64,000 bases of DNA from an uncultured Bacteroidales bacterium. Lineage in GTDB: Bacteria > Bacteroidota > Bacteroidia > Bacteroidales > Paludibacteraceae. The stretch lies in the NCBI GenBank assembly GCA_902766045.1, contig CACXCA010000005.1, forward strand, positions 1,704-65,703, given 5' to 3'. A model generated the notes under the pieces. The model made no database searches. It saw nothing but the letters and a program-made list of their open reading frames with translations, and had not been told where the DNA came from. The position numbers and the translations under genes are program-made. Shown piece after piece: positions 22,601 through 46,469 of the stretch (its first letter is position 1; each line of letters begins with the position of its first letter).

Positions 22601-25600
22601 GTGATTTCAGGAGTTTCGTATGTGTTCTTGTTTGAGAAGTCTCCTGATCCCCAGTTGTATTGCAATTGTTTATTGCTTGCTGTCAAAATGGCTGTTCCAC
22701 CATCACAGACGGCACCACCCATATTGTCTGTTACTGTGAATGTAGGTATTGTATCCACATTGACATCATGGAATGCTGAATCAGAACATCCGAAGTGATC
22801 TTTTGCGATAACCTTGTAGGTGGTGTATGTAAGCGGTGTAACTGTGAATAGTTCATCATTCTGTGATGATTGGTTGCCTGACGTTGTGTCAGTCCATACA
22901 TAGTTGTAAGGTCCTGTAGTACCGGTTGCTGCAGCTGTCAGTGTTATGCTTTCTCCTGAACACAAAGAGCTTGCGCCAGAGATAGTTACTGTTGGAATCG
23001 GTTTCACAGGAATTGTTACTTCTGCGTCAGAGCGACAAACCAATGTGCTGGTGAATGTCTCAGTTCCTTTTGTATTACTAATTAGATAAGAACTATATCC
23101 GGCAAATGAGAATGTCTCATCATCGGTCAGTTTCTTACTGATAGGCCATTCTTGAGTTAAGTCTAACAATTCACGGTTATACTCAATTGAGTCTGTGTTT
23201 GATATAGTTGAACCGTTTATAGAGAGACGTATCTTTGCCTCATTGTTCATACATACGTATTCTGGAGCCTCAGTGATTGATATGACAGGTTTGTCTTTAA
23301 CCATTATGTAGAAATGCTTAGTAGCTTCGCATGAAGATGAAGCGGTAGCTACAACATTATATGTGGCATCTTCCGTTACATTTTCTACAAGAATGGATTT
23401 AGTATTGCTTTGTCCATTCGACCATGAAAGAGATGAGGCATTTAAATCGCCAGCATTCATCTGAAGTGTGACATTCTCACCATAACATACGCCAACGTTC
23501 TCGTTGTCCAACTCAAACGTAGGTGTTGTTGCACGATATATACCGATTGGTTGTGAAACGTTGGAACAAGTATAATTTGGATTTGTGTATGTGGTTGTTC
23601 CTTTCACGATATAGTACGATGTTACATTTCCACTGTTTGGTGTCACCTCAAAGGAATTGTCTTGAACAACAGTATGAGTCGAATCGGTTTTCCATTTAGA
23701 ACCTGACTGCCATTCATACGTACTATTGCTTGGACCTTCTATAGAGATCTCTGCAGTGTTTTCACCTACGCAGATGAAGGCTGGACCAGATAATGTAAAG
23801 ACTGGTAGCTCATGGACAGATATCCGAGCTGTTTCAGAATGTGAACAAGTGAACGATTTGTTATTGATTGTCACCTTCTTTTTAGCTGACACTTCATACT
23901 CGTATGGTACTACATTTGCTGCTTTCACTGATGATTCTTTCCATCTTGTTGAAGTGGATGATGTTTTGTCAGGCCATGTATAGGTATAAGTGCCTGCAGC
24001 ATTCTTAATTTCAATTTCAGCCGTATCTTTATAGCAAATGTCTGCGCTGTAATCTAATTCGAATTCTGGATTTGTAATAACTTGTACACTCTTTTCAGCG
24101 GTGTATGTACATCCGTTTTGGTCTGATACAGTGACTCTAAATGTGGTGTCTTTTGTTATCTGAACAACAGAAGAGGTTGCTGTTCTGTCAGGATTCACAT
24201 CACCCCAATTATAGGATGTAGGTGTAGAACTACCACTCACTTTTTTCGTTGTCAATGTAATATTATTTCCTTCGCAGGCTGCAGCATCACCATTCAGTTG
24301 AATCTTTGGTAATGGATTCACATTGACGTAATAAGAAGCATTGTTCGAACAATTATTGTTGTCGGTTACTTTAACGGTATAGTAGCCATCGTCTGTGCTC
24401 TTAGCTTTATTTATTGAATATTGACTTGTTGTAACGGAAGTGGAGGTGCCGTCTGTCGTTTGTCCTTTCCACCATTCGTATGATTCAAATCCCTCATTTG
24501 CGTTAAGAGTTATGTCGTCATCAATACATAGAGAAGATTCTCCATTTGCTGCGTAACCGTTGATAGTTACCTCAGGTAATGGATTAACTGTTATAGTAAA
24601 CGTAGCTTCGTTTTTACATCCGTTTTCTGTTGCCTCTACGGTGTATCTTGTAGTTGTCTTAGGTGAGAGTGTACGTGTCGCTCCTGTGTTTTGTGATGTG
24701 TATTCACCCTCTTCCGTGTCTGACAACCATCTGAAGGTTGGTGAGTTGTTGGCCTCAGTGGCTAATGTTACCTGTTTTGAACCATTAAGACAGATGGTCG
24801 CATCAGATACTACGATGACTGGTTTGTCTTTCTTGTTAACAGTGAATGGTGCGGATGTTGCAGAACATCCGTCTTTCGTGGTACCTTTTACAGTGAATTC
24901 AGTTTCGCCATTGATGATTGGTTGTATGTTGTCTCCAATCTCACCTGTGCTCCATTCATAGGTGCCTAGTTCGCCAGCTCCTTTCGCAGTGAGATTTGCA
25001 GCTGAACCAACACAGACAGGAGAGACTCCTTCAATTGTAATTTCTGGTGTCTTAGATACAGAAACAGTGAAAGGGTCTGACAACTTGCTTTGGCATCCGT
25101 GATCGTCTTCTACCTTTACTTGGAAGGTATAAGTGCCAGTTGTTTCGCTTAATGCACTCGTTGTAACAGTTTCTTCATTCGTGTTTGTGGAATAATTTTC
25201 TCCTATCCATGTGTACTTATAAGGACTTTTTCCTTCTGATGCTACAGCTTTCAATCTTGCAGTTCCTTTATCACATGTCAGTTTATCACCTTCAATGTTG
25301 ACAACTGGATTGTTCCAGTAGTTGACAGACAATTCAGCCGATGCCTTACAATTATAATGAGTGTAGGTATATGCGGTGAATGTACGGGCATCGTTGATTG
25401 TGATGCCGCCTAAAATTGCGTCATCAGCGATTGACATATCGTTCTCGTCATGCCATTCGAATCTTTCACCTTCTGCACTGCTAGCTGTTACGTCCTTCAT
25501 GACATCCCCTTTACATACTGATATGTTGTTTTCGGATAATGTTATGGTTGGAATGTTCTCTTTTGTTATTGCGTGTTCGACCGTATCTGAACATTGTGTC

Positions 25601-28600
25601 TCAATATTAGTAACCACTAGCTTGTATGTAGTGTCTTTGCTAATTGTTTCAGTCCTAGATGTTGCTGTACTACCATTGTCAAGCCATACATAGCTATAGG
25701 CTGATGTGTTAGCATCTTTTACACTGAATATTGCTTCTTCTCCATCACATACATGTTTGTCTCCTTCTATTTCAGCAGAAGGTAATTTGTTCACATTCAC
25801 TGTGAATGTAGTTTGGTTGCTACATTCTTGGTCGGCAGCCAATTGAATAGAAGCAGTTGCAGTGTAGGTGGTTTGTGCTTCAGGATTAACGGTGATGGTA
25901 CTTTCATTTCCAAGATCGTTGCTCCATGTAATATTATCTGCGGCTGTGCTGGCTGCGGTTAAGTCAATCTTATCGCCATCACATATATTAGCAGAACCAT
26001 CTATTTGGTTGTTAATTGTGATATCTGGTTTTTCTATTACTTGGATTGTGACTGTTGTATCATTTTCACAACCGTTGTCAGATACCACTCTCAATGAATA
26101 TTCGGTGGTTGTTATAGGTTTGAATGTGTAAGAGCCTTTGATCTCTTTTTCTCCATTTTCTTCTTTTATATATACCTTATCTCCTGCATTTGTTCCTGAA
26201 ATTTGAAGAGTTGTTTCACCGCCTGCACAGATGGTCTCAGTTCCAGATATATCAAAATGAGGAGTAGGGTAGTTGGTGAGTTCAATGGTATCATGATTGC
26301 TACAGTTACCGTCGTTAACTTCTACGTAGTACCATGTTGGTTCGTTGATGACTTCGGCTAATTTGTCTTCTCCGCTACCAGACATGACGATAGAGCCTTT
26401 GGATTCAGTTCCTTTGTCATAACTATACCAAACAATGCTTGTCATGTTACCATTGATGCCAATGCTTGAAGTCGCACCAGGACAATACTGAAGCTCTCCA
26501 TTGAATGTAATGGTCGGTTTCGGATTGACAGTGAATGAACCGGTTTTCTCTTTTGAACTACAACCGTTTTGTGTGATGATTAACGAATAAGAGTAATCAC
26601 CAGTGTTGGTAGGTTCGTAATCTGTAATAGTTTTGGTCGTGTATTCCGTTTGTGTGTAATCTTTTCGACCAATTTTCCATGCGTATTCCACACCTGTTTC
26701 GTCTGCAATATCTGCGTTAATTGTGATTTTATCGTCTTGACAGATAAAGCTTGGTACATCTATGCTATTGATGACTGGCAATGGGGTACTGTTAACTGTG
26801 AGTGGCTTTGTCGCACTACATCCGTTTAATGTTCCTGTCACTGTGAAGGTGACAGTTCCTTCGATTTTCTCCGTGATGAATGTGCCTGTTTTGTGAGATG
26901 TCCAGCCTTCTTTAAACCAATCAAAGTCTGTTCCGTTAGCATAATTTATGACAGACAATGGCTTGCTTTCCCCTTCGCAGGCAGTAATATCGCTGAAATT
27001 CCATGTAGGAACATCTCTTCCGATGACTTCATATTGTATCTCATCAGCCTGACATACGAGGGTTGAACCATCCGATAATCCGTATGATTGTTTAGCTGTC
27101 ACATAATATGTCTCGCTTGCGCTGGAACTAGAAACGGTGACGCTCAAATCTTTTGCGTTTCCTAATGTTATGTTAGATCCATTGTCTTTCCTATACCATT
27201 CATAGCTATACAAAGATGCGTTATCACCAGTGATGGTAAGTGTGATGATAGAATCTTTACATGGCGCATCGTTCGTAGTAATTGATATGCCACTTGGCTT
27301 ATCGTATTCTTCGATTGTAATGCTTTTTGTCTCGGATACACAGTTTGTGGTAGGGTCCGTACCAGTTACTTCGTAGGTTCCTGCTTCACTTACTGTAATA
27401 GGGTTCTCACCTGCTGTGTGGCCTACCCATTGATAGTTGAGCGCTGTGCCAAAATTCTCTGTGGCAGTTAATGTTGAAGAACCTCCTTCACAGAATGCTT
27501 TGTCACCTGTTATGCTGATGACAGGAAGTGCGTGGATGGTTACATCTACAGGGACCTCTGTGATACATCCTTGATCCGTTACGGTTACTGTATATGTGAC
27601 AACCTTTGTGTTGTTAGTCACGGTTGCAGGTGTGTTATAGGTTGCTCCTGCTGGTGCATTTTGCCATTGTACAGATGCAGTGTTTGATGTCGGAGTAGCC
27701 GTAAGTGGAATAGATAATCCGCTACATACATGACGATCATTTTCTGCAGGTGTGATTGTGATGTTTGGCTCTGCAATGACTGAGATATCCTTAGGCTCTG
27801 ATTTGCTGTTACAATGGTACTCGTCTGTTCCTGTTGCAACGATTGTTAAATCAGAAGTGATGTTTTTAATCGTAATACTTGTTTGTGCTACGTTGTTATA
27901 AACAACATTGTTATAGATGTCTCCTGTGACTTTGTTTTTGATTGTCCAGGTGTAACTTTCAGCTCCCTCAGCAGTGTAAGTGGCATCCTTACCATAACAT
28001 ACTTCCTCATTTCCGAAAATCTCAATTGTCTTAGGACGAATGATGTTGACTTGTTGAGTGAGGGTGGTCGAACAGTTTGTTGTCTCATCTGTTATATTAA
28101 CAGAGTAGTTACGAGATTGATCAAGACCGTTCTGTTCTGTGATTTCAACCCCTGTTTTTGAGACTCCAGTTTCGCCCCATGTCCAAGTGGCATCGTTGAA
28201 TTGTGTGCTAGCTGAACCTGGTGTTACTTTTAGTGTAAATTGTGTATTGCTACATAGATCTACAGCGGCACCGTTTGTTTCTTGTCCGTTGACTAAAATA
28301 TTGGCAGTAGGTGCGTTTTTCAACTCGACATAAACGGTTGAGTCTTTCGTACAACTTCCTAGTTTGGCTGTGATGCTATATCCTCTTCTTCCGTTTAAGT
28401 TGTCGTTGGATGTCCATGTCTTTGTTGATCCATTGTAACTGCCATTAGTAGGCCAGTCAAAGCTGTCGGCTGTACTGTTAGCCCCTACATGCAATATTGC
28501 TTTTGTGGCAGGACAAATCTGTTCTGCTGTTACACCTACAATTGGCTTGCTGTTGACTGTAATCTTTTTGGTCGCTTCACCAGTACAATTATAGTCGTTG

Positions 28601-31600
28601 GTTACCACCAATTTATATGTGGTGGTTTCTTCTGGTGTCTCTGTCCATGAGTTGATCGTGGATGATAACTGAGTTGTCTCTCCCGTACTGGCTACACTAT
28701 ACCATTGATAACTGTTATAGGCTCCTTCAGTATAGACTTGTACAGGGTCGCCCTTACATATATTACCACTATTATTTGGCGTATTGTCAAGTATTGTAAC
28801 TGTTGGTTCAGCTTGTACTTCATACGATATTTCTGCATTGTTCGTACAAGTTTTGTTATCTGTGGTGAGTGATGCAGTACCTCTATAGGTTACATATCCT
28901 GTTGCGGAGCTGTTGACGGTGATTGGATTTGTACTGTTGCTTATACTTCCCCAATTTTCTCCGTTTTTCTTTTCCCATGTTATGGAAGAACCCGCAGTGA
29001 CATAAGCCGTGATTTTGTTGTCCGTGTTAGGGCATACGTTTTTCTTCTCAACGTCCAATGAGATACTTGGTGTTGGCTTAACACTAATTACAATTGGAAT
29101 TTCAATAGTACATTTGTCGTTCGCTGTATTGTCACCAGCTATGACAGTTAATGTTTTGTCACTGGTTAGAGCTTCGATGTCAGGAATTGATGATCCTGTT
29201 CCTATTTGTTTGTCACCATCCTTCCAAATGTATGATTCAGCTCCACTCAAAGTGATATCTGTTGGTTTGGTTCCACTACAAATTGGGTCGTTACCATTTA
29301 CTGTTATAGTTGGAGCGGTACCTTTTGTAATGGTGAATTTTTTTGTTGTTGGACAGTTATTTGCATTCCAACCTCTCACATATCCAGTTACTGTATTGAC
29401 ATTTTCAGCCAATGTGAACTGATTTGAAGAACCTTGAATACCTGTACTTGTAGAGTCTGCGTCCAACCATAAGAAGTTAGTAGCCGTACCGTTCTCACAT
29501 ACTAGTGTGACAGGTTTGTCAGTACATGCGGCATTGACTTGTCTTACATCAAATGTTGCTTTCGGATGAATGTAAACAGTGACGCTTTCAGTAGATGAAC
29601 AACCTCCATCTGTTGCTGTTGCTGTATATTCGCGAGAAGCCTCTTCTGTGGTTGAAATGGTATGCGTCAATTCTTTGTCCGTTGATGTTTGATTGTTACC
29701 ATATACCCAAGAATAGGTATATGCATCATTTGAACCATATATGCGAATTGGCTCATCAGAACATACAGTATTATCTGGTTTGTCGGTTGTTACAGAAAAT
29801 ACTGGTTTTAGCTTCACTGTTGCATTATATGATTCTGTCGTTTCACATGTTGATAGAGCTTTGAGCCTTGCTGTTACTGTCACCATTTCTGCATGGTTAA
29901 GTGTCATCTCTATTGAGCCACTATTATTAAGTGTCGCATTGGCTCCGTTGTATGTCCAATAGTAATTTACATCATTCGAAAGGTTACTAATGGAGATTGT
30001 GCCTTTGTCTTTTTCACAAACTTCTGTATAGTTAAATTGAATCGTCGGTTTGCTCTTTCTCTCTACTTCTGTTGTGTCATGTCCAATACAGCCGTTCTCG
30101 TCAATGACTTTTAGAACATACGCTGTGCGTTCTTGGGTAGGTGTTAGATCAATAGTTTTATTAGAACCTAACACGAAATCTTCATTTTCGCGAACACTCC
30201 AAGCGTAAGTAGTAAAGTCTTTGTTGGCTTCAAGTGAAATGCTTGAGCCCTCACAAACTAGCGAGCCATTAGGTTTGTTAATGGTGACTGTTGGATTTTT
30301 GTATACACTTAGATTGTAATCATTTTCACTTTTACATTGAAGAGTGCCTTTTGTGGTTGCAACAACATGATAGGTCACTGTTTTGTAAGCATTAGAGCCT
30401 GTGTAGGTCAACTTGTTTTCTCCTTCTGTTAACACGGCTCCTTCTGCTGTATATGTAGAGGAACTGCTACTGCTCCATACGAAATCACAGTTGGCAGCTG
30501 CGGCAGTTAATTGGAAAGGTTCTCCAGAACATATCTTTGAAGCTCCAGTGAAGGATATAACAGGTTTGTCTGTTACGTGAACAGTAACAAATGTATCCAT
30601 CGTACAGCCTGTACTATTTTCTACAGTGATTCTATATGTGGTTTCATCCGTAATATTGTTAAATGTTCGGGACGGACTAGCACCTCCTATACTCTCTGTT
30701 GTAACACCATCTATAGCCCAGATGATCTTTGTTACATTATTAATTTTAATGGTTGCATTATCTCCCTTACATATTGAAATCTCATCCCATTGTGGACGTG
30801 GTTTGCTATTAGGCGTAATCGAGTATGGAGTAGAAGTTCCTTTACAGCCATTGTCATCCGTTCCATCAACGGTGAACGAAATTGGACCTTCAATAGTTGG
30901 TGTGATAGATGTTCCTGTTCTTTCTGATGTTCCATCTTTCCAGATATATGTTCTAGCACCTGATGCAGTTAATGTAACTGGGTCGTTCACACATATATTT
31001 GTGTTATTTGCATTTATATGGATGACTGGCAGAGTATCGACTGTTATCATGATACTATCTTCTCCTTCACAGGAACCATCTAAACCAGTAACTTTGTATT
31101 TGATTTCGCCTGTAGTTGTTGGTGCTACACGTGCTTTGGATGGATCATTAAGATCTTGGGTTAATCCATTATTTACTTCCCATGTGTAGCTTCCATTGAT
31201 ACCTGCTCCAGAAGCAGTCAACGTTGCATAATCTCCTAAACAGATAGCTCTAGAAATTGGGTCTGATGATATCTTTATGTCGGGACGTGCATTGACTGTT
31301 ACAGTTGCTGATTTAGCCTCGCTTGTACAGCCGTTGAGGGTACCTGTGATAGAGTAGGTGCGACTCTCGTTTAACGTCTCAGTTTGATAATTGGTTTCGG
31401 TATTGCTCTGATTTGCGGCTATTTCTGCATGTCCATTCCCTGCCCATGTGAGGGTATATGAAGTTGCATCACCCGTCAATTTGATAGTTGCGGTTTGCTC
31501 GCTACAGATGTTTGCATTGGTGGCTGTGAATGAAGGAATTGGTTTTGTGTTTACAGTGAAGTTTGTCTCACCATAGCAGCCGTTGACATTACTTCCTTTT

Positions 31601-34600
31601 ACGGTATATGAAGTTGTGTCTTCTACAGTAGGACGATATATTGCACCACCTCCAATGATTTCTCCACCTCTGGTCCATTGGTAGTCGTTGTTATCTGCAC
31701 CTGTCGCAGTCATTTGATAACTGTCACCTTTACATACTTCTCCTTCTCCATTGACAAGACCATTGATATAAAGAGTAGGTTTCTTGTTGACGTTGACCTT
31801 GTATGATGCAGATGCAGTACATGCTGTAGTTGCGTCTGTTACGGTTACTGTAGCAGTGGCTTCTGATGCATTTGTTTCTGGCTTTAAGAAGTATGAATTG
31901 GTAACATCAGTAGCGGATCCATTCCACTTGTATGATACTGTATTAGGAGATACAGCTTTTAGTTCGATTGAATCGCCCTCACAGATGCTGCTTCTTCCAT
32001 CTTCATTTGTAATAGTTACAGAAGGTATGTCTTTTACTTCTATATCGATTGTGTCATGTTTTGTACAGCCTGTTGTCGCATTGGTTAATGTGGCTGTGAT
32101 GTGGTATGTTTTTGCAACATTCAATGTGGTGTCAAAAGAGAAAGTATGGAGGTCGCTTCTGCCAATCCATACAATGCTGGCATTTGTCTCTGTTGTGGAT
32201 GCTGTAATGGTAACTTTTTCGCCACGACAGATTGGGTTCTTGCTAGCCGAAAGTGTCAAGTTAGGTTCCTGTGCGACTTTTAAATTGAAATCGACAGGTG
32301 CTGATTCACAACCGTTAGTGTTTTTACCTTTTACTGTGTATATGTGAGGCGCAGAGATTCCTGTGATTTGGAAGTTGTCTGTTTTGTTATCTTGCTCAAC
32401 ATTATCAATATACCATGTCCAACCGTTGCTGCTCATGTTGGCATTGCCTGTTCCGCTCGCAATTAATTTTTCATTGTCACCTATACAATATTCTTTTGTG
32501 TCATCAGGCTCGATTTTGATTGTCGGCTTGGCAACGTATTGTATGAGTTTCGTGTCTGGTGTTGCAGGACAACCATTTTCACCTTTTGCATTCAATGTGA
32601 GTTGAATGTTATGCGTGACATTGTCGATTGTTATGGTGGATCCTTCACCTTGCCATGTTGCGTTGTCGTCACGAGTCCATTTATAGTCACTAATGCCTCC
32701 GATAGCTTTCACTTCCAATGTGCCATCTTCACATATCTCACCCTTGCCATTGTCGATACCGATGGCTTCTGGGGAGAAAACGTCAATGGTTATATCTTTC
32801 TGTGCCGTACAATTTTGTTCTGTGCTTGCAGTCACAACAAATGTCCGTTTGTTTGCAATTGGTGCTGTGGTGATTCTATTTGTTGTCTCACCATCGGTCC
32901 AATTCCATCTGCTTACAGCAGCTTGTGAATTTGTATTTGTGGCTTCGATGACAGTACTGCTGTCTTTACATACGACAGTTTTTGTGGCAGCCAAAGAGAG
33001 TACAGGGGTCTCCTTAGCTGTTACTTTCACCTTGGCAGTGTTGGTACAACCTATGTTGTCATACCCCTTTACTGTGTATGTGGCAGTTTCGTTGATTTGT
33101 GGATTGATAGCGTTGCATGCAGTACATGCATAATCTTTTGTCACATTGTTTTCTGTTGTATAAGTCCATGTGTATGATGTGGCTCCTTCAACTTCAATAG
33201 ACAGAGTGCTTCCTTTACATATAGAGGTGTCTTTTGTAGGAATCTTGATTTTGACATTAGGGTGATGGTTGACAGTGATTGAATATGGGTCACTTATGCC
33301 TACACAACCTTTGTCATTTTGTCCTTTCACATAGAATGTTGTTGAATTTGGATCTGCATCGAAAGTGACAACATCTGTTGTATATAATGGATTTGCAAAA
33401 TTGTTTGTCGTGCTCCATTTGTAGTTGCCAGCGGTTCCTCCTTTTGCTGTCAGAGAGACAGGTGAACCTTCACAATAGGTAGTGGAACCTACGATATAGA
33501 TGTTTGGCGGCGTTAGTACACTTAACGAGTAAGTGGTATCTACCTTACATCCTTCTTTCTCGATGGACAATGTAACAATGTAGTTGAAAATGTTTTCTCC
33601 GTTGAAATCAACGTTTCGATCATAGAATGTGTTGGTGTTAAGTCCGCTTGTCTGATGATTATTGTAAGATGGCGTCCATAAATAGGTGTAGCCTTCGAAG
33701 TTTTCCACTCCTAATTCAACGTCTAGTCCATTACATACATAGTCCTTGTTCGTATCAAGATTTTTGATTATAGGATATTCTTTTGCTCTGATACTTGTGG
33801 TGTCAGGTTCACTCTTGCAACCATGGACATCTTGTGCAATGACTACGAAATAGGTTGTTTGCGATAGAGGAAGTGAGATGTGATCGCCTGTCGCATCTCC
33901 GATATGGCTAGTAAGATCCTCTTTATATAATGTCCAGTTGTATGTGGCATAAGTTTGTCCGTCAACTTCTGCAGACAGTTCAGCAATTGAGTTGACACAA
34001 TATGCGTCTTTTGCTGGTGTAGCATGTACAACAGGATTGTCATATACAGGCATTTTTGCAGTTGTATGACCTTCACAATTATGATCATCCTTGGCTTTTA
34101 CAAGATATGTGTAGGTGCCTGATTGAGTAGAGTGTATTTGGATTTCACTGTTGTGATCTCCTGTGCCACTCATTGGTATTGTGTCAATTGTGGTACTTCC
34201 CGTTCTTTCTACGATTTCAAACCATGAGTAGTCTTTTCCTGTTCCAGCTCCGTTGGCAACAAGTATTGTGTCAAAACCTATACAAAGACCAGCTTCATGA
34301 CCTGTAATAGCCAAACCTGGAGCAGGTCTTACCACGATACTTTTCCTTAGTGAACTTGTACAGCTGATGGTTTTTCCATCTTCTGTATAGTTTTTCGTTC
34401 CCAATAATGTGTAATATACAATACCAGTACCCGAAGGCTTGTGCGTCAGTGATTGTTCTCGTCCAACAGTGTCGTTGTCGAAAATCCATATATATGAATC
34501 TGCATTTGTACCCGTTAATGTTGTGGCGGTATTCTCACACATTTCATCATCTAGGGTAATGCCAATTTCAGGATAAGGTTTTGTCTTGACGGATACAGAT

Positions 34601-37600
34601 TCTTCAGAGGAACAATTGTATGCATCGGTACCTTTTACCAAGTATGTCTTGTCACTTCCTACAGTCACTTCGTAGGTGCTGTTTTTGGTTCCGTCGTCCC
34701 ATACATATTCAACAATCTTTCGTTCGTTATCATTGGCATTGTCATCTATTGTATAGAGAGTGTCTCTTTCGTTTACACAGACTAATCCTTGTTTTGCGTA
34801 TGCCTTAAATGATGGAGCTTCGTGGATGGTGATAGTCATGCTGTCAAGTTTAGAACAACCGGTAAAGTTGTCCTCTGCATATCCACGTACGTAGTATGTG
34901 ATGGAACTTAAATTAGAAGCAGGAGTGTGTCGCATATCTCCAGTTTGGCTAATTGTAGTGGAGAAGTCTCTTGATGTACTCCATTTATAACTATTAGCAC
35001 CGGAAACGGAGAGGTGAACTTCGCTGTTTTTACAAATATGGCCTGCACGGTATCCATGATCCATGATGGTGATCTTAGGTGCATTTTGTACAGTTATATT
35101 GAATTCTTTTTGAGAAGAACAGAGCACGTCACCATGTTTTTTGAATCCCTCCACATAGTATGCCTTGGTAGTGACATTAGGTGTATCTACCATCGTCAGT
35201 TTTAATTCATTTAGATAGTGAGGGTTTACACCACCTGTCCATACAGAACATGAATCAACTTCTCCATTGGCGGAGATTGTTAAGGTGATAGGTTCACCTT
35301 CACATACAGTTGTGCTGGATGAATTGTCTAACTGGATGTTAGGTACATTATGTACCTGAATAGTATCTTTCTTTTTACTGCTACAACCGTTGTTGTTAGT
35401 ACCCAATAATTCAAGGTGGTATTCTGATTGATTTTCAGTAAATAGAAGAGTTAGATTCTTGTTTTGGAAGTTTGTGTTATTGTCGAGTGTCCATACGTAA
35501 CTTGTTTCATCTTCTGCGCCTCCGGCTGTGAAGGTGTAGTCGCTACCCGCACATACGTCATGAGGACCGTTGATGGTTAGGTCTGGGCTTTCCTTTTTGT
35601 ATATATATACAGAGTCCATGTCAAAACACTCATCAACAGTTGTACAAGTTGAATAGAATAGAGTGGAGTCTGTAATCTCAGGTGTTGTGTAATTGTCGGA
35701 AGGTAAATGATAATTTGAGTTGGTCTCTCTTAAAAGTTCCTTGTTTTCGTTGTGCCATTTAAAGTCGCAATCCATGTTGCTAGTGGCACTTAGCTTGATG
35801 CTGTCACCTTCACAGACTTCAACGTAGCGAATTGTGTTGCCGTGGCTGTCTGTAGTAAACTTCATACCCTCAGCTGCCAAAGTGATGGTAGGACGTTCTT
35901 TGACGGTGATGTTGTGGTCACCCTCATAGATACAAGTACGGTCGGTTATTGTGTGACCGTCTAAGTCTTTGTTTTCAATACTCTTAATTTGTAGTGTATA
36001 TGTTGCAGTTCCGTTCGTTGGACTAGCCATATAAGAAACCGCATTTTCACCTGTGAATATATTATTTAAGGTATTTCCTTTCTCATCTTTCCAATAGTAT
36101 TCAAAGGCGTTGCCATAGTTGTTGGTATATGCACCACCATTGGTTGAACCAAGATAGGCTGGTGTGACAAGTCTTAATTCCTTAGAACTGCCAAAGCAGA
36201 CAGTGTTATCACCTTGTATCTCAACATTAGGACGACCTGTGACATGGATAGTTTTACGGACTTCCTTTCGGCAATCATTTTTGGTGATTAAAGTCATAAC
36301 GATGTCGTAGGTGCATGTCACCCCAATTTGACATGGTAAAATGATGGAAGTGCTATCACCTTGTATCTGCACCTTGTTAGCTTCATTTTGCACATTGTTT
36401 TTCCAGTAGGTCCAGATGACATTTATGATAGAATCTGGTTCTTCGAGCTCCCCATTGTGCATGATAGGTGTGATAGTGGATTTATTGGTAAGTAATACTT
36501 CGTTGTAACACGCCACCTCTGCATCAAAATCAAGCGTAAATGGATCTTTTGTTAAGGTGAATTTGTCTTCAGTTTGTGTACAAGTTGAGCCACTATTGAT
36601 TAAGTTTGGATCGTTATCGTTATTATGCATGGTAACGGTGTATTCCTTGTTTGCCTCGATTTCTGTTTTAAAAATTGTTGCTTCGTTCGATGTGGCAGTG
36701 CCAGAAATTTGAGGAGTCCATTGATAATAAGAGAATCCTTCAGGCGCAGTTAATTCAATCGGTGCTCCGTTATCACAGTTTTTGATGATAACTTCAAAAG
36801 GTTTTGTTTCGGCAGTGAAATAACCGTATGTGCGGTGATAACCAGCTCCATATCGCTGATGGAATACTTTTTTGTCTTCATGTTTTATGTTTCTACAATA
36901 TGGACATGTGTAGGTTCCTTTTACTCCATATTGATCTGATGTTATATTTGTTGGAGTGATATCCGCAAAATAGTGCTGGCAGTTGTCACATACCCAAAGT
37001 TTCTCTATACAATCGTGATTAACTATTTCAATTGTAATTTCATCACCTATGAAATCTCTTAAATCGTATGATATAGTAGTCCAGTCTTTGAAATATGTTT
37101 TTTCCAAATATTCTGCTGGCAAGTATGCTTGCTGACAATATGAGTTACTTTGCACTGCGATTGTTCCTTCATCCAAGCATGTTCTAATGATATCTCCTGA
37201 TGAATTACATACATAGCATGTGTGAGCTAGAGAAGGATTGGTGTTTTCTAAATCCTCATAAATTAATGTATTTTTCTTGTTTGTACCATATGTACATTCC
37301 ACGCAAATATCTCTGTTTTCGATACGTGTCCGAGGCTCTTCATGTGATTTGGTTGTGACGGTCTCTGTTCCTATATAGTGGTAATAATAGCTTTGATTTG
37401 GCTGTTTTTCAAATTCACTGTTTCCGAAGTCGTCTGTTCGCAATGGTTGGTTATAATACACTCGAGTATTCCCATTGTTGTAGTAATATTTTCTTTGAGA
37501 AGTACTGTAATAGTATTGCCTATAGTTTGTTCTTCCATTCGATGTGTATGTTTCGTATGTGGACCATTTTTCTTTGGTTTCATCTATGATGGTCACATAA

Positions 37601-38502
37601 TAAGTTATTTCTACATCCTTGTTGATGCTTCTGATACATTGGAAGTCGTGCTTATTTGCAGAAGCTTTACACTCTGGACATTCCGTTAAGTCGTCTGTCT
37701 CTGCACAACCAGCAGTGTGAGTGTCGAAACCAGCACTTTCAGGAAGCGTTTCTTCGCAGACTTTACAATATGTGGAATAGCCGGAGATGGTGTGTGAGTT
37801 GGCTTTTGTAAGTCCATTGGAACTGTTTATTACACTTGAGTTGCATAGAGTCTCAGTATCTCCATTCTGTTTTTTGTGATGAATATATATAGCAAAAGGA
37901 GGCTTCTCGTTTTTATGATTATTGTTGAAGTCGGGGTCGTGTGATAATACAGCATATTTGTAAGTGAGTAACGTGGATTTATTATCTACGGTAAAAGTAT
38001 ATGTCATTCTCTCTGCCATAGCACGTTTGCACCATTGATATGGAGCGTCTTCTGTAGTCGGATTAAGAGGCGTGTCTAATGCTCTGTTTTCGGCATCTTC
38101 GCTTGAACCGATACGAACTGCATATGTGCTTCCATCTGGTACTTGTTTCAAATTGTCGCAGGCAATATTTTTATCGATACTTGCTGAACTCATAATTTGG
38201 AAGCCTCCATATATTGTACCTGTGATTTGAGCATCACGAACAGTCCACACGTCTGTTCCTGGCACAACAGATTGAGCCTCAGTTTTTGTGGTGGCTTCGA
38301 AAATGTCTGATATGACTAATGGCTGAAAATTATCCATAAAGCAAGATGGTCCATAATATCCATAATATCGTGTCCATCCTTCATAGGTTCCTTTTTCAAA
38401 GCCTAAGTTCGGAGTGCTGGAGTTCACATCGCTCGATTGTCCAAATGTGTTGGGATACCCTAAAAACATCAAACCGACCAATATTATCCACTTATATTTC
38501 AT
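13675..38502 (-). CDS. Giant (about 8,280 aa) T9SS type-B-CTD cell-surface repeat protein, SprB-class
   Basis: An uninterrupted ORF runs 13675-38526. The likely start is the ATG at 38502 (MKYKWIILVGLMFLGYPNTFG|Q signal peptide); 38526 is the alternative. The body is tandem ~80-90-aa modules, each with a conserved Cys pair ('..C.G....L.A.GA..Y.W...' then '...GC....'). The C-terminal ~90 aa, FWAPNAFSPNDDGLNDVFRFLG...IIYNREGTIMFE...WDGTYNGEPAPFGVYGYVV...GSVTLIR, fits the gliding-motility-associated (CHU_C / type-B) sorting domain. Confidence 0.92.
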   Translation of the reverse strand: MKYKWIILVGLMFLGYPNTFGQSSDVNSSTPNLGFEKGTYEGWTRYYGYYGPSCFMDNFQPLVISDIFEATTKTEAQSVVPGTDVWTVRDAQITGTIYGGFQIMSSASIDKNIACDNLKQVPDGSTYAVRIGSSEDAENRALDTPLNPTTEDAPYQWCKRAMAERMTYTFTVDNKSTLLTYKYAVLSHDPDFNNNHKNEKPPFAIYIHHKKQNGDTETLCNSSVINSSNGLTKANSHTISGYSTYCKVCEETLPESAGFDTHTAGCAETDDLTECPECKASANKHDFQCIRSINKDVEITYYVTIIDETKEKWSTYETYTSNGRTNYRQYYYSTSQRKYYYNNGNTRVYYNQPLRTDDFGNSEFEKQPNQSYYYHYIGTETVTTKSHEEPRTRIENRDICVECTYGTNKKNTLIYEDLENTNPSLAHTCYVCNSSGDIIRTCLDEGTIAVQSNSYCQQAYLPAEYLEKTYFKDWTTISYDLRDFIGDEITIEIVNHDCIEKLWVCDNCQHYFADITPTNITSDQYGVKGTYTCPYCRNIKHEDKKVFHQRYGAGYHRTYGYFTAETKPFEVIIKNCDNGAPIELTAPEGFSYYQWTPQISGTATSNEATIFKTEIEANKEYTVTMHNNDNDPNLINSGSTCTQTEDKFTLTKDPFTLDFDAEVACYNEVLLTNKSTITPIMHNGELEEPDSIINVIWTYWKNNVQNEANKVQIQGDSTSIILPCQIGVTCTYDIVMTLITKNDCRKEVRKTIHVTGRPNVEIQGDNTVCFGSSKELRLVTPAYLGSTNGGAYTNNYGNAFEYYWKDEKGNTLNNIFTGENAVSYMASPTNGTATYTLQIKSIENKDLDGHTITDRTCIYEGDHNITVKERPTITLAAEGMKFTTDSHGNTIRYVEVCEGDSIKLSATSNMDCDFKWHNENKELLRETNSNYHLPSDNYTTPEITDSTLFYSTCTTVDECFDMDSVYIYKKESPDLTINGPHDVCAGSDYTFTAGGAEDETSYVWTLDNNTNFQNKNLTLLFTENQSEYHLELLGTNNNGCSSKKKDTIQVHNVPNIQLDNSSSTTVCEGEPITLTISANGEVDSCSVWTGGVNPHYLNELKLTMVDTPNVTTKAYYVEGFKKHGDVLCSSQKEFNITVQNAPKITIMDHGYRAGHICKNSEVHLSVSGANSYKWSTSRDFSTTISQTGDMRHTPASNLSSITYYVRGYAEDNFTGCSKLDSMTITIHEAPSFKAYAKQGLVCVNERDTLYTIDDNANDNERKIVEYVWDDGTKNSTYEVTVGSDKTYLVKGTDAYNCSSEESVSVKTKPYPEIGITLDDEMCENTATTLTGTNADSYIWIFDNDTVGREQSLTHKPSGTGIVYYTLLGTKNYTEDGKTISCTSSLRKSIVVRPAPGLAITGHEAGLCIGFDTILVANGAGTGKDYSWFEIVERTGSTTIDTIPMSGTGDHNSEIQIHSTQSGTYTYLVKAKDDHNCEGHTTAKMPVYDNPVVHATPAKDAYCVNSIAELSAEVDGQTYATYNWTLYKEDLTSHIGDATGDHISLPLSQTTYFVVIAQDVHGCKSEPDTTSIRAKEYPIIKNLDTNKDYVCNGLDVELGVENFEGYTYLWTPSYNNHQTSGLNTNTFYDRNVDFNGENIFNYIVTLSIEKEGCKVDTTYSLSVLTPPNIYIVGSTTYCEGSPVSLTAKGGTAGNYKWSTTNNFANPLYTTDVVTFDADPNSTTFYVKGQNDKGCVGISDPYSITVNHHPNVKIKIPTKDTSICKGSTLSIEVEGATSYTWTYTTENNVTKDYACTACNAINPQINETATYTVKGYDNIGCTNTAKVKVTAKETPVLSLAATKTVVCKDSSTVIEATNTNSQAAVSRWNWTDGETTNRITTAPIANKRTFVVTASTEQNCTAQKDITIDVFSPEAIGIDNGKGEICEDGTLEVKAIGGISDYKWTRDDNATWQGEGSTITIDNVTHNIQLTLNAKGENGCPATPDTKLIQYVAKPTIKIEPDDTKEYCIGDNEKLIASGTGNANMSSNGWTWYIDNVEQDNKTDNFQITGISAPHIYTVKGKNTNGCESAPVDFNLKVAQEPNLTLSASKNPICRGEKVTITASTTETNASIVWIGRSDLHTFSFDTTLNVAKTYHITATLTNATTGCTKHDTIDIEVKDIPSVTITNEDGRSSICEGDSIELKAVSPNTVSYKWNGSATDVTNSYFLKPETNASEATATVTVTDATTACTASASYKVNVNKKPTLYINGLVNGEGEVCKGDSYQMTATGADNNDYQWTRGGEIIGGGAIYRPTVEDTTSYTVKGSNVNGCYGETNFTVNTKPIPSFTATNANICSEQTATIKLTGDATSYTLTWAGNGHAEIAANQSNTETNYQTETLNESRTYSITGTLNGCTSEAKSATVTVNARPDIKISSDPISRAICLGDYATLTASGAGINGSYTWEVNNGLTQDLNDPSKARVAPTTTGEIKYKVTGLDGSCEGEDSIMITVDTLPVIHINANNTNICVNDPVTLTASGARTYIWKDGTSERTGTSITPTIEGPISFTVDGTDDNGCKGTSTPYSITPNSKPRPQWDEISICKGDNATIKINNVTKIIWAIDGVTTESIGGASPSRTFNNITDETTYRITVENSTGCTMDTFVTVHVTDKPVISFTGASKICSGEPFQLTAAAANCDFVWSSSSSSTYTAEGAVLTEGENKLTYTGSNAYKTVTYHVVATTKGTLQCKSENDYNLSVYKNPTVTINKPNGSLVCEGSSISLEANKDFTTYAWSVRENEDFVLGSNKTIDLTPTQERTAYVLKVIDENGCIGHDTTEVERKSKPTIQFNYTEVCEKDKGTISISNLSNDVNYYWTYNGANATLNNSGSIEMTLNHAEMVTVTARLKALSTCETTESYNATVKLKPVFSVTTDKPDNTVCSDEPIRIYGSNDAYTYSWVYGNNQTSTDKELTHTISTTEEASREYTATATDGGCSSTESVTVYIHPKATFDVRQVNAACTDKPVTLVCENGTATNFLWLDADSTSTGIQGSSNQFTLAENVNTVTGYVRGWNANNCPTTKKFTITKGTAPTITVNGNDPICSGTKPTDITLSGAESYIWKDGDKQIGTGSSIPDIEALTSDKTLTVIAGDNTANDKCTIEIPIVISVKPTPSISLDVEKKNVCPNTDNKITAYVTAGSSITWEKKNGENWGSISNSTNPITVNSSATGYVTYRGTASLTTDNKTCTNNAEISYEVQAEPTVTILDNTPNNSGNICKGDPVQVYTEGAYNSYQWYSVASTGETTQLSSTINSWTETPEETTTYKLVVTNDYNCTGEATKKITVNSKPIVGVTAEQICPATKAILHVGANSTADSFDWPTNGSYNGSTKTWTSNDNLNGRRGYSITAKLGSCTKDSTVYVELKNAPTANILVNGQETNGAAVDLCSNTQFTLKVTPGSASTQFNDATWTWGETGVSKTGVEITEQNGLDQSRNYSVNITDETTNCSTTLTQQVNIIRPKTIEIFGNEEVCYGKDATYTAEGAESYTWTIKNKVTGDIYNNVVYNNVAQTSITIKNITSDLTIVATGTDEYHCNSKSEPKDISVIAEPNITITPAENDRHVCSGLSIPLTATPTSNTASVQWQNAPAGATYNTPATVTNNTKVVTYTVTVTDQGCITEVPVDVTIHALPVISITGDKAFCEGGSSTLTATENFGTALNYQWVGHTAGENPITVSEAGTYEVTGTDPTTNCVSETKSITIEEYDKPSGISITTNDAPCKDSIITLTITGDNASLYSYEWYRKDNGSNITLGNAKDLSVTVSSSSASETYYVTAKQSYGLSDGSTLVCQADEIQYEVIGRDVPTWNFSDITACEGESKPLSVINYANGTDFDWFKEGWTSHKTGTFITEKIEGTVTFTVTGTLNGCSATKPLTVNSTPLPVINSIDVPSFICQDDKITINADIADETGVEYAWKIGRKDYTQTEYTTKTITDYEPTNTGDYSYSLIITQNGCSSKEKTGSFTVNPKPTITFNGELQYCPGATSSIGINGNMTSIVWYSYDKGTESKGSIVMSGSGEDKLAEVINEPTWYYVEVNDGNCSNHDTIELTNYPTPHFDISGTETICAGGETTLQISGTNAGDKVYIKEENGEKEIKGSYTFKPITTTEYSLRVVSDNGCENDTTVTIQVIEKPDITINNQIDGSANICDGDKIDLTAASTAADNITWSNDLGNESTITVNPEAQTTYTATASIQLAADQECSNQTTFTVNVNKLPSAEIEGDKHVCDGEEAIFSVKDANTSAYSYVWLDNGSTATSRTETISKDTTYKLVVTNIETQCSDTVEHAITKENIPTITLSENNISVCKGDVMKDVTASSAEGERFEWHDENDMSIADDAILGGITINDARTFTAYTYTHYNCKASAELSVNYWNNPVVNIEGDKLTCDKGTARLKAVASEGKSPYKYTWIGENYSTNTNEETVTTSALSETTGTYTFQVKVEDDHGCQSKLSDPFTVSVSKTPEITIEGVSPVCVGSAANLTAKGAGELGTYEWSTGEIGDNIQPIINGETEFTVKGTTKDGCSATSAPFTVNKKDKPVIVVSDATICLNGSKQVTLATEANNSPTFRWLSDTEEGEYTSQNTGATRTLSPKTTTRYTVEATENGCKNEATFTITVNPLPEVTINGYAANGESSLCIDDDITLNANEGFESYEWWKGQTTDGTSTSVTTSQYSINKAKSTDDGYYTVKVTDNNNCSNNASYYVNVNPLPKIQLNGDAAACEGNNITLTTKKVSGSSTPTSYNWGDVNPDRTATSSVVQITKDTTFRVTVSDQNGCTYTAEKSVQVITNPEFELDYSADICYKDTAEIEIKNAAGTYTYTWPDKTSSTSTRWKESSVKAANVVPYEYEVSAKKKVTINNKSFTCSHSETARISVHELPVFTLSGPAFICVGENTAEISIEGPSNSTYEWQSGSKWKTDSTHTVVQDNSFEVTPNSGNVTSYYIVKGTTTYTNPNYTCSNVSQPIGIYRATTPTFELDNENVGVCYGENVTLQMNAGDLNASSLSWSNGQSNTKSILVENVTEDATYNVVATASSSCEATKHFYIMVKDKPVISITEAPEYVCMNNEAKIRLSINGSTISNTDSIEYNRELLDLTQEWPISKKLTDDETFSFAGYSSYLISNTKGTETFTSTLVCRSDAEVTIPVKPIPTVTISGASSLCSGESITLTAAATGTTGPYNYVWTDTTSGNQSSQNDELFTVTPLTYTTYKVIAKDHFGCSDSAFHDVNVDTIPTFTVTDNMGGAVCDGGTAILTASNKQLQYNWGSGDFSNKNTYETPEITQTGQKSFEIKAKDGNGCESEPVLHNLVWKPNPDLSIQSNSPVCYNTPATLVVSDAITSGTTTYIWNGDETLKENTYVTDNITDVKTFSVKGTNNGCTQTKEVTVSFNPLPTIKIEEGNTAVCRTSTLILTASGGESYRWNKNDGDYEDDNSYSSENMNQETKVFVWGKDANGCENKDEVNVYIHEKPKFSISGDTVVCHGGSTALYANVNNNDNVSYKWFINGVERHGDYVEINDIDNDVEVSVTAINQHSCDSTYTFYVRAKEYPTIVVDKNNVEVCKGDNATLSIQPIANAIIEWRNAAGRNITEALHPEQITQKIATTFENFTANATYVYKQYGSDEVRCTTSQTLSATTRDLPFVSIAGDAAICFGSPFTLEATQGLANYQWINNKTKNTIGNERSISQSPTETTEYKVVVTDEYGCKNADSTTVVVNSLPEFTLTSSSKVCEGKEATVKTNNKKLTYNWEDKGYQSLFSYNYQIDEPTNITVYAMDPTTTCVDKRTINIGTKPYPNMMLEIPPYVCEGLSGTMKGKNESASYKWYVGNSAGTVLSSKREVSTGNLYKDQTYYVTATMNGCKSEETVTVKVSASPNIKIQDSPSKSICKGSSVRIIAEGGVSYSWDSEDNYEETDWIELINLRTQKEVQVWGKDINGCINKDKITVNINELPKFTVSHKEGYCEGTIATLEASNDALSYEWKDKYGNIVSRSQIYMPKITSDTSFTVRAWNSFGCDSTSKEIFIKKYDYPVVTIDNPMAVCKNSDITITASATYPDGSAMTCDYLWNHDVNETNASISRTIKQSTNFTVDVTDKVSQCTTTQDFNVGVWTLPTILAKDTTVCKKDKAILSASSASTITKYRWHKNNSTTTLSSKATYTTGAISTPTKYIIEGTDEKGCVGSKEVTVSVYADPAFNLVTNSPICAGDEAQITASNNGLSYDWGEGFKSDVRLTEVIDDTKQYIVIGMSTEGCKTTKKATVKVNPLPNVALDIDGGDYVCFGEDKTLTVSGTNYYKWFNNSSSSQITLNDLEETTNIWVEGTDTKGCTRRIDTTINIWSLPDIQIEASKPDICLGKSVKLTAINGVSGKYEWIIPSGKTTDKVTVKPTTSGTKTYSVRGEDVNGCKNTATQSIIVYDHPTLTIPPVADVCRGTEATLVANGSASYYEWTIKGNSTVIGSSSTITTKVTPNSMDEKSVTFHVVATDMNTCVSEGDITVGVKEYPTPTYETNTKYDFVCKGQNITINLSGADEWEWTDNQSTDATRTEKLNSQKTFTVIGTTDGCSTSLPINIGIWPLPDFSLDGTSSICLNKELSIKATANGTDKYTYEWIGKNYTGDVYQEIPSAVTTYTFTARAKDEHDCMSDRSFKVKVNPLPNVTIKGDRTSIICNGTEISKSVTGSALDYTWYTAKEKTDTWKTEATGEDLTTIVEGQKYIVAKGVDINQCENTDTVLVTTKPFPVLDIKAPEHVCQNDTAVVSVVGASSFVWENVDIKNIFDIYSTNNTVIGSTIREKMTDDRSFVVTGTTNGCSTTEVINVGVWTLPSILISTNDPDNEICMNDSIILNATEGVAGKYKWALTDDKNAEVFATTDDITAKPTETTTYYVTGQDENGCKNTAEFEVVVNPLPDVKILSVDAVCENSEVTLTAVSNSKIIKSYSWNSGESVPQITSIIREKSTFTVEVEDLNGCENKADFTITTKEVPNLKITAPNYVCDGDEATISITGANSYTDEYGAVIPNGKFVDKPVKDTTYVIIGKIGTCTSQEEVAVQVMPLPNIWISTNKEEICKGVEQSVLTANGGVSYVWSDGVTTTDRTEKPSESTTYKVYGTDANKCSNWSNEFTLKVNNLPEFEIYGDNDVCVGNAATLYVKGDATTYTWTNTGELKDTINPIINQTTTYTVIGENLSGCKTTKTKTVYKKDYPVVTTNAPESICEGDNLTVTASGASTYTWQDGSTGETYSEENMLNSKTFYVIGSKNGCETKEQFTVSILPKPYVWITGDRDICLGKNINLSASGAKSYEWSNGATGSTLSEATTTAQKVYYRVTGTDEHKCHFTTEPFEVIVHALPTITITGDDSICNGSVAHLKADGASEYAWSTGERDANVYPVITKDQNFTVTGTDAYGCVNTKTHTIRNIDYPELVYNAPKQVCAGDSINIAIQGADRYTWKDKTYEGSTFTLKDKPTNLTTYNVVGNHSGCESSISFQVDVVQLPNIWISGPSSVCLNSAIQLTASGAMNYEWSTGSKASIITDRPTETKTYTVTGKDINGCKNTQSYTIHIDSLPSFKIQGPTYACQGDAVNLYIEDGDAVRYTWSNGAISDAITPIINNATSFTVEAISAKGCVSTKIHNIKCYPYPILTYTGPSEVCAGDLAKFNVVGAATYKWSHDNENTTGTMTDNPTNNKTYIVEGTANHCSTKLSIPISVLPKPNVTFQGVTNICEGHKLDLTAYGAASYKWSTGNNTDHLEVYPKANSKFTLTGTDLNGCQTTINVPVTINPSPNFEILGEDSVCRGFYVQLTAKGDGENYYWGFGTNTMDDAISRDGETIATEVNTSTYIFTKAIDKNGCESTKYKLLTLKESPSINYTGIDVVCVGNPAKLYAHGAEHYTWNFNNKNVTGDSLIFMPEGNTRITLSGTKGACTTEMEIHVTAHVKPNIRVTGDSIVCQGDAAVLLAEGAATYKWNNEKEGRILIQNIEEDNVFTVIGTSESGCESRKDVKVRVNKRPHVWMKQNAIEGCPGTDTRVDISAHGDAISYEWSSVPKNGEISGNMSDHIYAVIDQETAVTVVGTDANGCTSSDTMTVDTLTFLPIEFSVTPSIIVEENPVITMKGIYPRHAKWYWNTGDDYNTEVQGVEATYRYPNPSVRDSFVVTALAIDEKGCEYVGDSTIWVWKNFWAPNAFSPNDDGLNDVFRFLGTEFMTSFHFIIYNREGTIMFEGFTKEDEWDGTYNGEPAPFGVYGYVVTWESDFKEVHKNGERKGSVTLIR

Positions 38503-38790
38503 GTTTGTGAGTATACTTATATTCATATTTAACTGTCTTTTAGTTCTTTACTTTGTTTCGTTACCTACTAAGGTTCAATCTGTAAATTTATCATTAAGTT
38601 TTTTCTTTACCAAATTTAAATCTTGTTAAAAAGGGTTTTCTTAGTTTTTTTTTATTAAATGTCGGTTTGTGAAAATTGTACAATGATGGCTCGTGTTTTT
38701 TAATGATATGCTAAAATATTGAAAGATAGTATTTTATATTTTCTACGTAAAAAGATCTTTATTCTTAATCAAAAAAAATAGAACTTTATA

Positions 38791-38954: not shown

Positions 38955-39092
38955 GTTTTATCTTTGCATATATTCGAACGACTCATTAATTTAATGATAG
39001 TAACTATACAATTTCAAGGTGTTTCTTAGTACTTGTTGTTACTAAGAAAAGCGAAGCTTTTATATTTTGATAATCTTATATTTCTAAATTAT

Positions 39093-42287: not shown

Positions 42288-42303
42288 TACTAAACTTAGA
42301 AAG

Positions 42304-44605: not shown

Positions 44606-44614
44606 AAATTTAAT

Positions 44615-45661: not shown

Positions 45662-45667
45662 TAAATT

Positions 45668-46468: not shown

Positions 46469-46469
46469 A

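Follow-up and report, generated by a model that had tools for sequence, protein, structure and literature searches.

An uncurated tip domain with putative extracellular metal-knuckle inserts in a predicted giant type IX secretion system adhesin of a Paludibacteraceae bacterium

Giant fibres exported by the type IX secretion system (T9SS), such as SprB and GhpA, have structures that are only now emerging, and the ligands of their tips are mostly unknown. The grappling-hook protein GhpA of Aureispira (PDB 9flp) is a Sec/T9SS substrate of 5,898 amino acids (aa), in which an N-terminal, distal adhesin module is followed by tens of Ig-like repeats with disulfides and by a T9SS tail; its head is antigen I/II-like and Ca-dependent, and no CxxC units have been described in it (bioRxiv 10.1101/2024.01.29.577165). 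We analyzed a gene of similar layout in a 64,000-nucleotide stretch of DNA (hereafter, the window) from an uncultured Bacteroidales bacterium of the family Paludibacteraceae (GenBank assembly GCA_902766045.1, contig CACXCA010000005.1, positions 1,704 to 65,703 of the forward strand). The gene is a single 24.9-kb open reading frame (ORF), and its product is a Sec/T9SS-exported fibre of ~0.9 MDa, consisting of a head, 91 Ig-like repeats, and a type-B sorting tail (Table 1). The first 1.7 kb of the ORF, which encodes the head, contains three pairs of CxxC motifs, here called units 1, 2, and 3. Comparative sequence analysis points to a giant T9SS adhesin with an uncurated tip domain and putative extracellular metal-knuckle inserts, and we lean, with modest confidence, towards regarding the three units as predicted structural zinc knuckles that support variable loops of the adhesin tip.

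The window protein resembles GhpA in having a head, Ig-like repeats with paired Cys residues, and a C-terminal T9SS sorting domain, and a profile that included the stalk matched GhpA at an E-value of 4.5e-193 in 26 stretches, which cover the repeats and the tail only. In contrast, a profile of the head core only found no GhpA match in the PDB, i.e., the two heads are unrelated by sequence. The hosts and the gene contexts also differ: GhpA belongs to an aerobic marine predator and has PorP and PorE homologues encoded downstream, whereas the window protein belongs to an anaerobic gut or rumen organism and no such homologues adjoin its gene. SprB, the gliding adhesin of Flavobacterium johnsoniae, differs in that the SprB repeat (PF13573) was matched nowhere in the 8,283-aa window protein and no sprF-like gene is adjacent. 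The initial annotation had called the protein T9SS-secreted, and the C-terminal domain confirmed this, matching both PF13585 CHU_C (E 6e-15) and TIGR04131 (E 8e-14) over their cutoffs; the hydrophobic stretch of the signal peptide is kept in the orthologs. Because the architecture matches that of the giant T9SS fibres SprB and GhpA, we expect the head (aa 30–580) to form the tip of the fibre, at its distal end.

The six CxxC motifs, their arrangement in three pairs, and the peptides and approximate positions given in the initial annotation were all correct by translation. The first Cys residues of the two motifs are 29, 29, and 28 aa apart in units 1, 2, and 3, respectively. The whole protein contains 217 Cys residues and only seven CxxC motifs, six of which are in the head (the seventh is at aa 1801), and when the mature head, 591 aa with 22 Cys residues, was shuffled 100,000 times, six or more CxxC motifs arose only once; the motif cluster is therefore non-random. 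The motifs might still be a by-product of Cys-rich, fast-evolving inserts, with coincidental pairing and no specific role, as the inserts of other clades are Cys-rich too and arranged differently, and no homology was detected among the three units (hhalign probabilities of 11%, 18%, and 2%). This explanation seems to us hardly credible, given the shuffling result, the regular spacing, and the invariance of the ligand Cys residues amid freely changing neighbors. Two simpler identities were also considered. The c-type haem motif was ruled out because no CxxCH occurs among the CxxC motifs of the protein, and the idea that the three units are paralogous repeats of one module was unsupported by profile–profile comparison.

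To place the units, the family to which the head belongs must be described. The head was matched by no Pfam or NCBIfam model, and a sequence search of the PDB with the head alone returned no match. With a profile built from the head and three initial homologues, a search of 1.84 billion representative proteins recovered 1,321 clusters at an E-value of 1e-3 or lower, of which 313 reached 1e-10 or lower; some of the weaker matches span just the first Ig domain or a strand motif that is repeated. Searching a set of 5.8 billion proteins with a family profile brought in only three more. Typical family members are T9SS cargo proteins whose repeats are of the PKD, SprB, or Ig_7 type and which end in CHU_C or Por_Secre_tail, and an insert-free core of ~240–300 aa occurs in well over a hundred of these related proteins. 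The family signature consists of N..FE.G...W, a His, a Cys, W.T...DL..Y.G..[IV].[IV], and DC..GxH..Y.Y, represented in the window protein by N40, F43, W51, H204, C228, W482, D505, C506, H564, Y567, and Y569. The element DC...GxH..Y.Y is carried by 140 of the 173 sequences examined. The N-terminal part of the core is common to 17 Paludibacteraceae-type heads and the wide family. In the wide-family alignment, W482, D505, C506, and H564 are each conserved in at least 90% of the sequences and Y567 and Y569 are invariant, and in the alignment of insert-free cores H564, Y567, and Y569 are all invariant. We conclude that the head belongs to a large family of beta-sandwich domains, located at the N-terminus of Bacteroidota T9SS cargo proteins, that no Pfam or NCBIfam model covers. 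As a separate observation on the head core and proteins P0013–P0152, the conserved H...C...DC..GxH..Y.Y loop set (H204, C228, D505, C506, and H564) resembles a functional or metal site. Furthermore, three unrelated giant proteins (P0023, P0037, and P0104; such labels are our own handles for the sequences compared) each gave 10–26 matches to profile positions ~486–560 only, the strand-hairpin region, and therefore a WTT..YDL..Y.G..[IV].[IV]-like repeat exists elsewhere as a tandem module.

The initial annotation had described the head as a jelly-roll or lectin-type fold into which other pieces are inserted. The inserted nature of these pieces was borne out by the insert-free cores of relatives, and the core-plus-inserts layout is strongly indicated; the fold itself is plausible, but its matches are weak or below threshold. 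When AlphaFold2 (AF2) was run with an 88-sequence alignment, the core was modeled as all-beta with a predicted local distance difference test (pLDDT) score of ~85–97 (~85–97 for aa 35–240 and 90–97 for aa 464–512), compared with a pLDDT of 38 from a four-sequence alignment. The 88-sequence alignment is thin across the insert regions, where units 1 and 2 stay low-confidence. A Foldseek search of the head model against the PDB and BFVD gave nothing at E ≤ 1e-3. Its weak matches included carbohydrate-binding modules (CBMs), of which the best had E-values of 0.07–0.35 and TM-scores of ~0.15–0.31 on the target, as well as the Eph ligand-binding domain, PNGase F, phage tail-fibre tips, and unrelated folds; the disordered inserts of the model probably depress these scores. 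The CBM4/9/22 and MAM/Eph jelly-rolls are all-beta like the head core, and the first strand of the porphyran-binding T9SS CBM 8xmz resembles the N-x-x-F-E-x-G-x-x-x-W of the head and was the best PDB match of the core-only family profile (E 0.096). Family relatives likewise gave sub-threshold matches to CBM_4_9, InhA-like MAM, and HpiC1-like models, with CBM_4_9-type E-values of 5e-4 to 0.055, under the cutoff. However, the head had no sequence match to these families over a curated threshold, and they lack the H...C...DC...GxH..Y.Y signature.

A scan of species-representative genomes yielded 16 close relatives and four distant ones, and a metagenome scan yielded 12 more loci. The 16 close relatives are metagenome-assembled genomes (MAGs) of Paludibacteraceae or Bacteroidales from buffalo, goat, sheep, yak, horse, and human gut, and every carrier with a resolved genome is a MAG from rumen, caecum, or faeces. 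The four distant relatives are insert-free and come from aerobic Bacteroidota. Their alignment revealed two expansion sites in the head: site A, between C228 and C464, where the window protein has a 237-aa insert made up of unit 1, a Tyr-rich segment, and unit 2, and site B, which holds unit 3.

Unit 3 is an insert of ~55 aa between D505-C506 and H564, the most conserved loop residues of the family. In most of the wide family, the DC–GxH hairpin measures 0–16 aa, ordinarily 2–4 aa, and has no Cys pair, whereas it reaches 43–61 aa or more in proteins of the Paludibacteraceae type and in a small number of additional ones (P0005, P0007, and P0009). Judged from these alignments, unit 3 is an all-or-none module. 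All of the ~30 carriers of unit 3 keep the four ligand positions. Clades 1 and 2 have [WY]-[VI]-C-x-x-C as the first knuckle, and all of the ~13 clade-3 sequences have C-x3-5-H there (e.g., RCGGDH, RCGGNH, RCLNGGH, RCENVAAH, and MCSNYDHH), leaving three Cys and one His; the second knuckle is C-[Px]-x-C, replaced by C-x4-C in L023 and P0002. In the 13 aligned sequences of the CxxC type, the four Cys residues are the sole invariant columns of unit 3, and the head varies most in the remainder of this unit: between the window protein and P0001, identity is 38% in unit 3 vs. 85–86% in the flanking core. The AF2 model gives pLDDT values of 90, 90, 92, and 74 at the four Cys residues and places short strands on both sides of the knuckles (aa 507–513, 526–531, and 534–539).

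Two forms of chemistry could account for this pattern, metal coordination or disulfide bonding, and the initial annotation had likened the pairs to zinc-ribbon or rubredoxin-like knuckles, with disulfide knots as the alternative. For pair 3 the zinc-knuckle reading gained support from the four retained ligands, the Cys-to-His clade, and the Cx4C variants, and for pairs 1 and 2 it came out weaker. A metal site is favored for unit 3 because the module has an odd number of Cys residues once one is exchanged for His, because of the CxxC/Cx4C exchange and the CPxC-type knuckles, and because the Cys totals of the heads show no even-number bias, being odd in 8 of the 17 orthologs. The knuckles have the canonical sequences W-[VI]-C-x-x-C and C-P-x-C. 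Known zinc ribbons (eL43, RpoP, the TFIIB/TFIIS type, and the ClpX zinc-binding domain) and the GATA treble clef share with the units the CxxC-(~25 aa)-CxxC arrangement, CPxC knuckles, short beta-hairpins (predicted by AF2 around unit 3), and a Cys/His exchange at a ligand position. They differ in being intracellular and mostly nucleic-acid- or protein-binding, whereas the unit here is inserted in a loop of an exported beta-sandwich and its surface is hypervariable. In the literature searched, no paper links zinc ribbons with T9SS cargo. When searched against the PDB, the unit-3 profile found only metal-knuckle proteins, i.e., eL43 (E 7.7e-4), GATA (E 1.3e-3), PolD DP2, RpoP, the ClpX zinc-binding domain, and rubredoxin. 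In Pfam, the isolated units gave only sub-threshold matches, mostly to families of the zinc-finger, zinc-ribbon, or rubredoxin type. Zn_Ribbon_1 on unit 3 of L003 scored highest (E 1.5e-4, 21.9 bits vs. a cutoff of 25), and the window units scored 15–18 bits against cutoffs of 24–30. We consider the evidence from the compared sequences to favor a four-ligand, metal-type site strongly for unit 3 and moderately for units 1 and 2.

The disulfide alternative holds that the CxxC pairs, together with the extra Cys residues 274/297 and 450/464, form disulfide ladders or knots that stiffen the inserts with no metal involved. It is a serious rival, and most so for units 1 and 2, given that paired Cys occur in the stalk repeats of the same protein (exactly two in 83 of 91 repeats) and that the stalk Cys residues of the aerobic giant GhpA form real disulfides. 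It also draws on the export of the protein, on the hairpin-type C-x8-11-C pairs of sister lineages, which were lost pairwise in the window protein, and on units 1 and 2, where no Cys/His exchange is seen. For unit 3 it meets a direct obstacle, since three Cys and a conserved His, as in clade 3, cannot form two disulfides, and the odd head totals, the CPxC and W-V-C-x-x-C knuckles, and the replacement of CxxC by Cx4C speak against it as well, as does the origin of all genome-resolved carriers in strictly anaerobic, reducing gut habitats. Anaerobic Bacteroidales are not known to possess DsbA/DsbB-type machinery for periplasmic disulfide catalysis. Overall, we judge disulfides to be a rather unlikely explanation of the units.

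A further alternative is that the units are rubredoxin-like Fe(Cys)4 or redox centres for electron transfer, or CxxC sites of thiol–disulfide exchange. Rubredoxin likewise has two CxxC knuckles ~30 aa apart with aromatic neighbors, and the 28–29-aa spacing, the aromatic-rich knuckles, the sub-threshold matches to PknG_rubred, RUBY_RBDX, Zn_ribbon_LapB, and rubredoxin chains, and the availability of Fe(II) in the rumen would all suit such a role. On the other hand, the rubredoxin family itself was not matched, neither a thioredoxin fold nor a CxxCH haem motif is present, and no partner redox genes are adjacent. The Cys3His variant and the hypervariable surface suit a structural site more than a finely tuned redox centre, and the protein is exported and variable, unlike a conserved redox protein such as rubredoxin. 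We regard a redox function as very improbable.

Units 1 and 2 at site A have a narrower distribution than unit 3. Site A is hypervariable, ranging from 106 to 262 aa among relatives. Both units are restricted to the clade of the window protein, ~8 sequences of 50–75% identity (the window protein, P0001/L024, L023, L003/L025, L004, L006, and L007, with unit 1 also in P0018). In unit 1, C254, C257, C283, C286, and C297 are invariant in seven sequences including the fragment P0018, and C274 is kept by eye, although the automatic alignment does not place it in line with P0018; in unit 2, all five Cys residues are invariant in six clade-1 sequences. In more distant orthologs, site A is occupied by other Cys-rich sequence. 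Conservation of the six CxxC motifs among orthologs, on which the initial annotation had placed weight, thus applies to the ligands of pair 3 in all carriers, and for pairs 1 and 2 it does not extend beyond the nearest clade. A sister clade fills site A differently: in L010–L017, L026–L028, and P0003 the insert is a different Cys-rich module (e.g., ECEEWEC...C...C) with 12–16 Cys per 130–160 aa in a pattern unrelated to window units 1 and 2.

Several points weigh against our preferred reading of the units as structural zinc knuckles. First, none of the units matched a curated zinc-ribbon family above threshold in Pfam. A CxxC...CxxC profile draws zinc fingers almost by construction, and such pattern-driven matches therefore indicate resemblance, not family membership. 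Second, the AF2 pLDDT of units 1 and 2 is 28–47, and these two units are known from a handful of fairly close sequences in which no ligand is swapped for His. Third, Cys4 zinc sites are, to our knowledge, rare in exported proteins. The paired Cys residues of the stalk and the GhpA disulfides described above belong to this list as well. Finally, a binding function of the tip is itself presumed.

Between pairs 1 and 2, the initial annotation had noted a Tyr-rich stretch, and its presence was confirmed: aa 301–399 contain 17 Tyr in 99 aa, the highest of all 99-aa windows in the protein (mean 4.7, standard deviation 2.2). The accompanying description of a low-complexity insert was not upheld, as the segment is not a disordered linker; at the same position, the sister sequences L003, L004, L006, and L007 carry three C-x8-11-C pairs, which in the window protein and P0001 have been lost pairwise, with Tyr-rich sequence present instead. 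Identity to clade-1 orthologs over aa 301–399 is 26–34%, vs. 65–89% in the core. The sequence pattern suggests that this segment is probably a variable beta-hairpin region. No tandem DNA repeat underlies it. Within the head region, tandem repetition at the DNA level is confined to window positions 38350–38369, where 2.2 copies of a 9-bp unit encode the invariant YYGYYG within the conserved RYYGYYGP motif.

We also compared the head DNA among alleles. Between L023 and the window, identity is 98–100% over aa ~262–440 and 95% in the next bin to aa ~466, vs. 33–73% at aa 61–111, 142–171, 202–231, and 497–556 (within window 36850–38350), and in most of these low-identity stretches L024/P0001 is the better match to L023. 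At aa 707–766, no differences separate the window from L024 (100% identity). These block mosaics of the head point to recombination between alleles, and the sequences suggest that cassettes recombined within a population. A mutagenic mode of diversification is unlikely, as the head DNA has no repeat elsewhere in the 64-kb window that could be the template repeat of a diversity-generating retroelement, and diversification of that type was rejected on this ground and in view of the variation, which includes indels as well as block mosaics.

If the zinc-knuckle reading is correct, each CxxC...CxxC unit would be a small zinc-ribbon-type knuckle pair around a single metal ion, which is most likely Zn(II) and is liganded by four Cys residues or, in the sister clade, by three Cys and one His. 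Such metal staples would give the long loops on the surface a rigid support that does not depend on redox state, in a habitat that is anaerobic and reducing and in which disulfides would be unreliable. The residues between the ligands and the Tyr-rich beta-hairpins would form an exposed, rapidly diversifying surface, which may set what the tip binds (a glycan or a cell-surface ligand) or may be what enemies of the tip recognize. Unit 3 would probably cap or reshape an ancestral binding site, because it adjoins the conserved H...C...DC...H loop cluster, lying between D505-C506 and H564. The complete scheme, in which the tip of an anaerobic rumen or gut bacterium is a beta-sandwich with up to three extracellular Cys4 or Cys3His zinc knuckles in place of disulfides and with recombining hypervariable cassettes that serve adhesion or evasion, is possible, and we put it forward only tentatively.

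The features of the gene are listed in Table 1. The 91 Ig_7-like repeats of the stalk have a median length of 73 aa. Repeat detection left two holes of ~105 aa in the stalk (aa 662–769 and aa 5078–5181), which may be divergent repeats or other domains.

Table 1. Positions in the window of the giant gene, the domains of its product, and the CxxC motifs of the head.
Feature	Window position	Strand	Basis or detail
Whole gene, 8,283-aa T9SS type-B cargo (giant fibre/adhesin, predicted)	13675..38526	-	single ORF, 24.9 kb
Signal peptide, aa 1-29 (MNISILTNMKYKWIILVGLMFLGYPNTFG, followed by Q)	38440..38526	-	sequence reading; predicted cleavage site
Head core, N-terminal part, aa 35-240	37807..38424	-	motifs TPNLGFEKGT.EGW, ACDNL, RAMAE, C228
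Unit 1, aa 254-297	37636..37767	-	C254xxC257 ... C274 ... C283xxC286 ... C297
CKVC, aa 254	37767-37756	-	pair 1
CPEC, aa 283	37680-37669	-	pair 1
Tyr/Thr/Asn-rich variable segment, aa 301-399	37330..37626	-	Tyr count, ortholog alignment
Unit 2, aa 408-450	37177..37305	-	C408xxC411 ... C437xxC440 ... C450
CVEC, aa 408	37305-37294	-	pair 2
CYVC, aa 437	37218-37207	-	pair 2
Head core, C-terminal part 1, aa 464-512	36991..37137	-	C464, WTTISYDLRD, EITIEIVNHDC506
Unit 3, aa 513-544, zinc-ribbon-like insert in DC..GxH hairpin	36895..36990	-	C513xxC516 ... C541xxC544
CDNC, aa 513	36990-36979	-	pair 3
CPYC, aa 541	36906-36895	-	pair 3
Head core, C-terminal part 2, aa 553-580	36787..36870	-	GYH564RTYGYFTAET
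Stalk, 91 detected Ig_7-like repeats, aa 581-8189	13960..36786	-	iterated self-hidden Markov model, Pfam Ig_7
C-terminal T9SS type-B sorting domain, aa 8190-8283	13678..13959	-	PF13585 CHU_C, TIGR04131

The gene is flanked by a convergent phosphofructokinase gene and a divergent M28 peptidase gene (39033–40082). None of the nine larger neighboring ORFs scanned matched PorP_SprF, and a PorP/SprF-like partner may be encoded elsewhere. Beyond the M28 peptidase gene, a capsule/O-antigen-type polysaccharide locus extends over 40106–48069 on the plus strand. The window ORFs of this locus were translated only, and its names (a Polysacc_synt flippase, a Wzy_C polymerase, glycosyltransferases, and an ATP-grasp protein) come from Pfam annotation of the syntenic P0001 contig (L001 1–6929), which has the same gene order as the window. 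At 23–11288, also on the plus strand and upstream, there are co-directional large ORFs with cell-surface-type domains, namely, a 1,347-aa protein with an MBG domain, a 598-aa protein with no match, a 1,208-aa protein with GLUG motifs, and a 558-aa protein with an outer-membrane-protein beta-barrel N-terminus; none of these large ORFs matched the PorP/SprF model. The GC content increases from ~0.37–0.39 to 0.44–0.52 at the window's right end (60001–64000), and the DNA there may be foreign. A 778-aa ORF in this part (61271–63607, minus strand) had no Pfam or NCBIfam match, and no Rfam family was found in 52000–64000.

The head described here defines a large N-terminal tip-domain family for which Pfam and NCBIfam hold no model, and in one lineage, the Paludibacteraceae-type bacteria of the rumen and gut, the loops of this tip have been rebuilt with putative metal-knuckle modules. 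Three zinc sites in an exported adhesin tip, for which the basis is at present comparative, would be notable if shown: they would be rare extracellular Cys4 zinc ribbons and would show that obligate anaerobes stabilize exposed loops without disulfides. If metal-stapled loops do recombine as proposed, they would put the zinc ribbon to a new use outside the cell and would represent a new scheme of adhesin diversification. The combination of invariant ligands, a hypervariable surface, and allele mosaics may thereby pinpoint candidate residues for ligand or host-surface specificity in rumen Paludibacteraceae.

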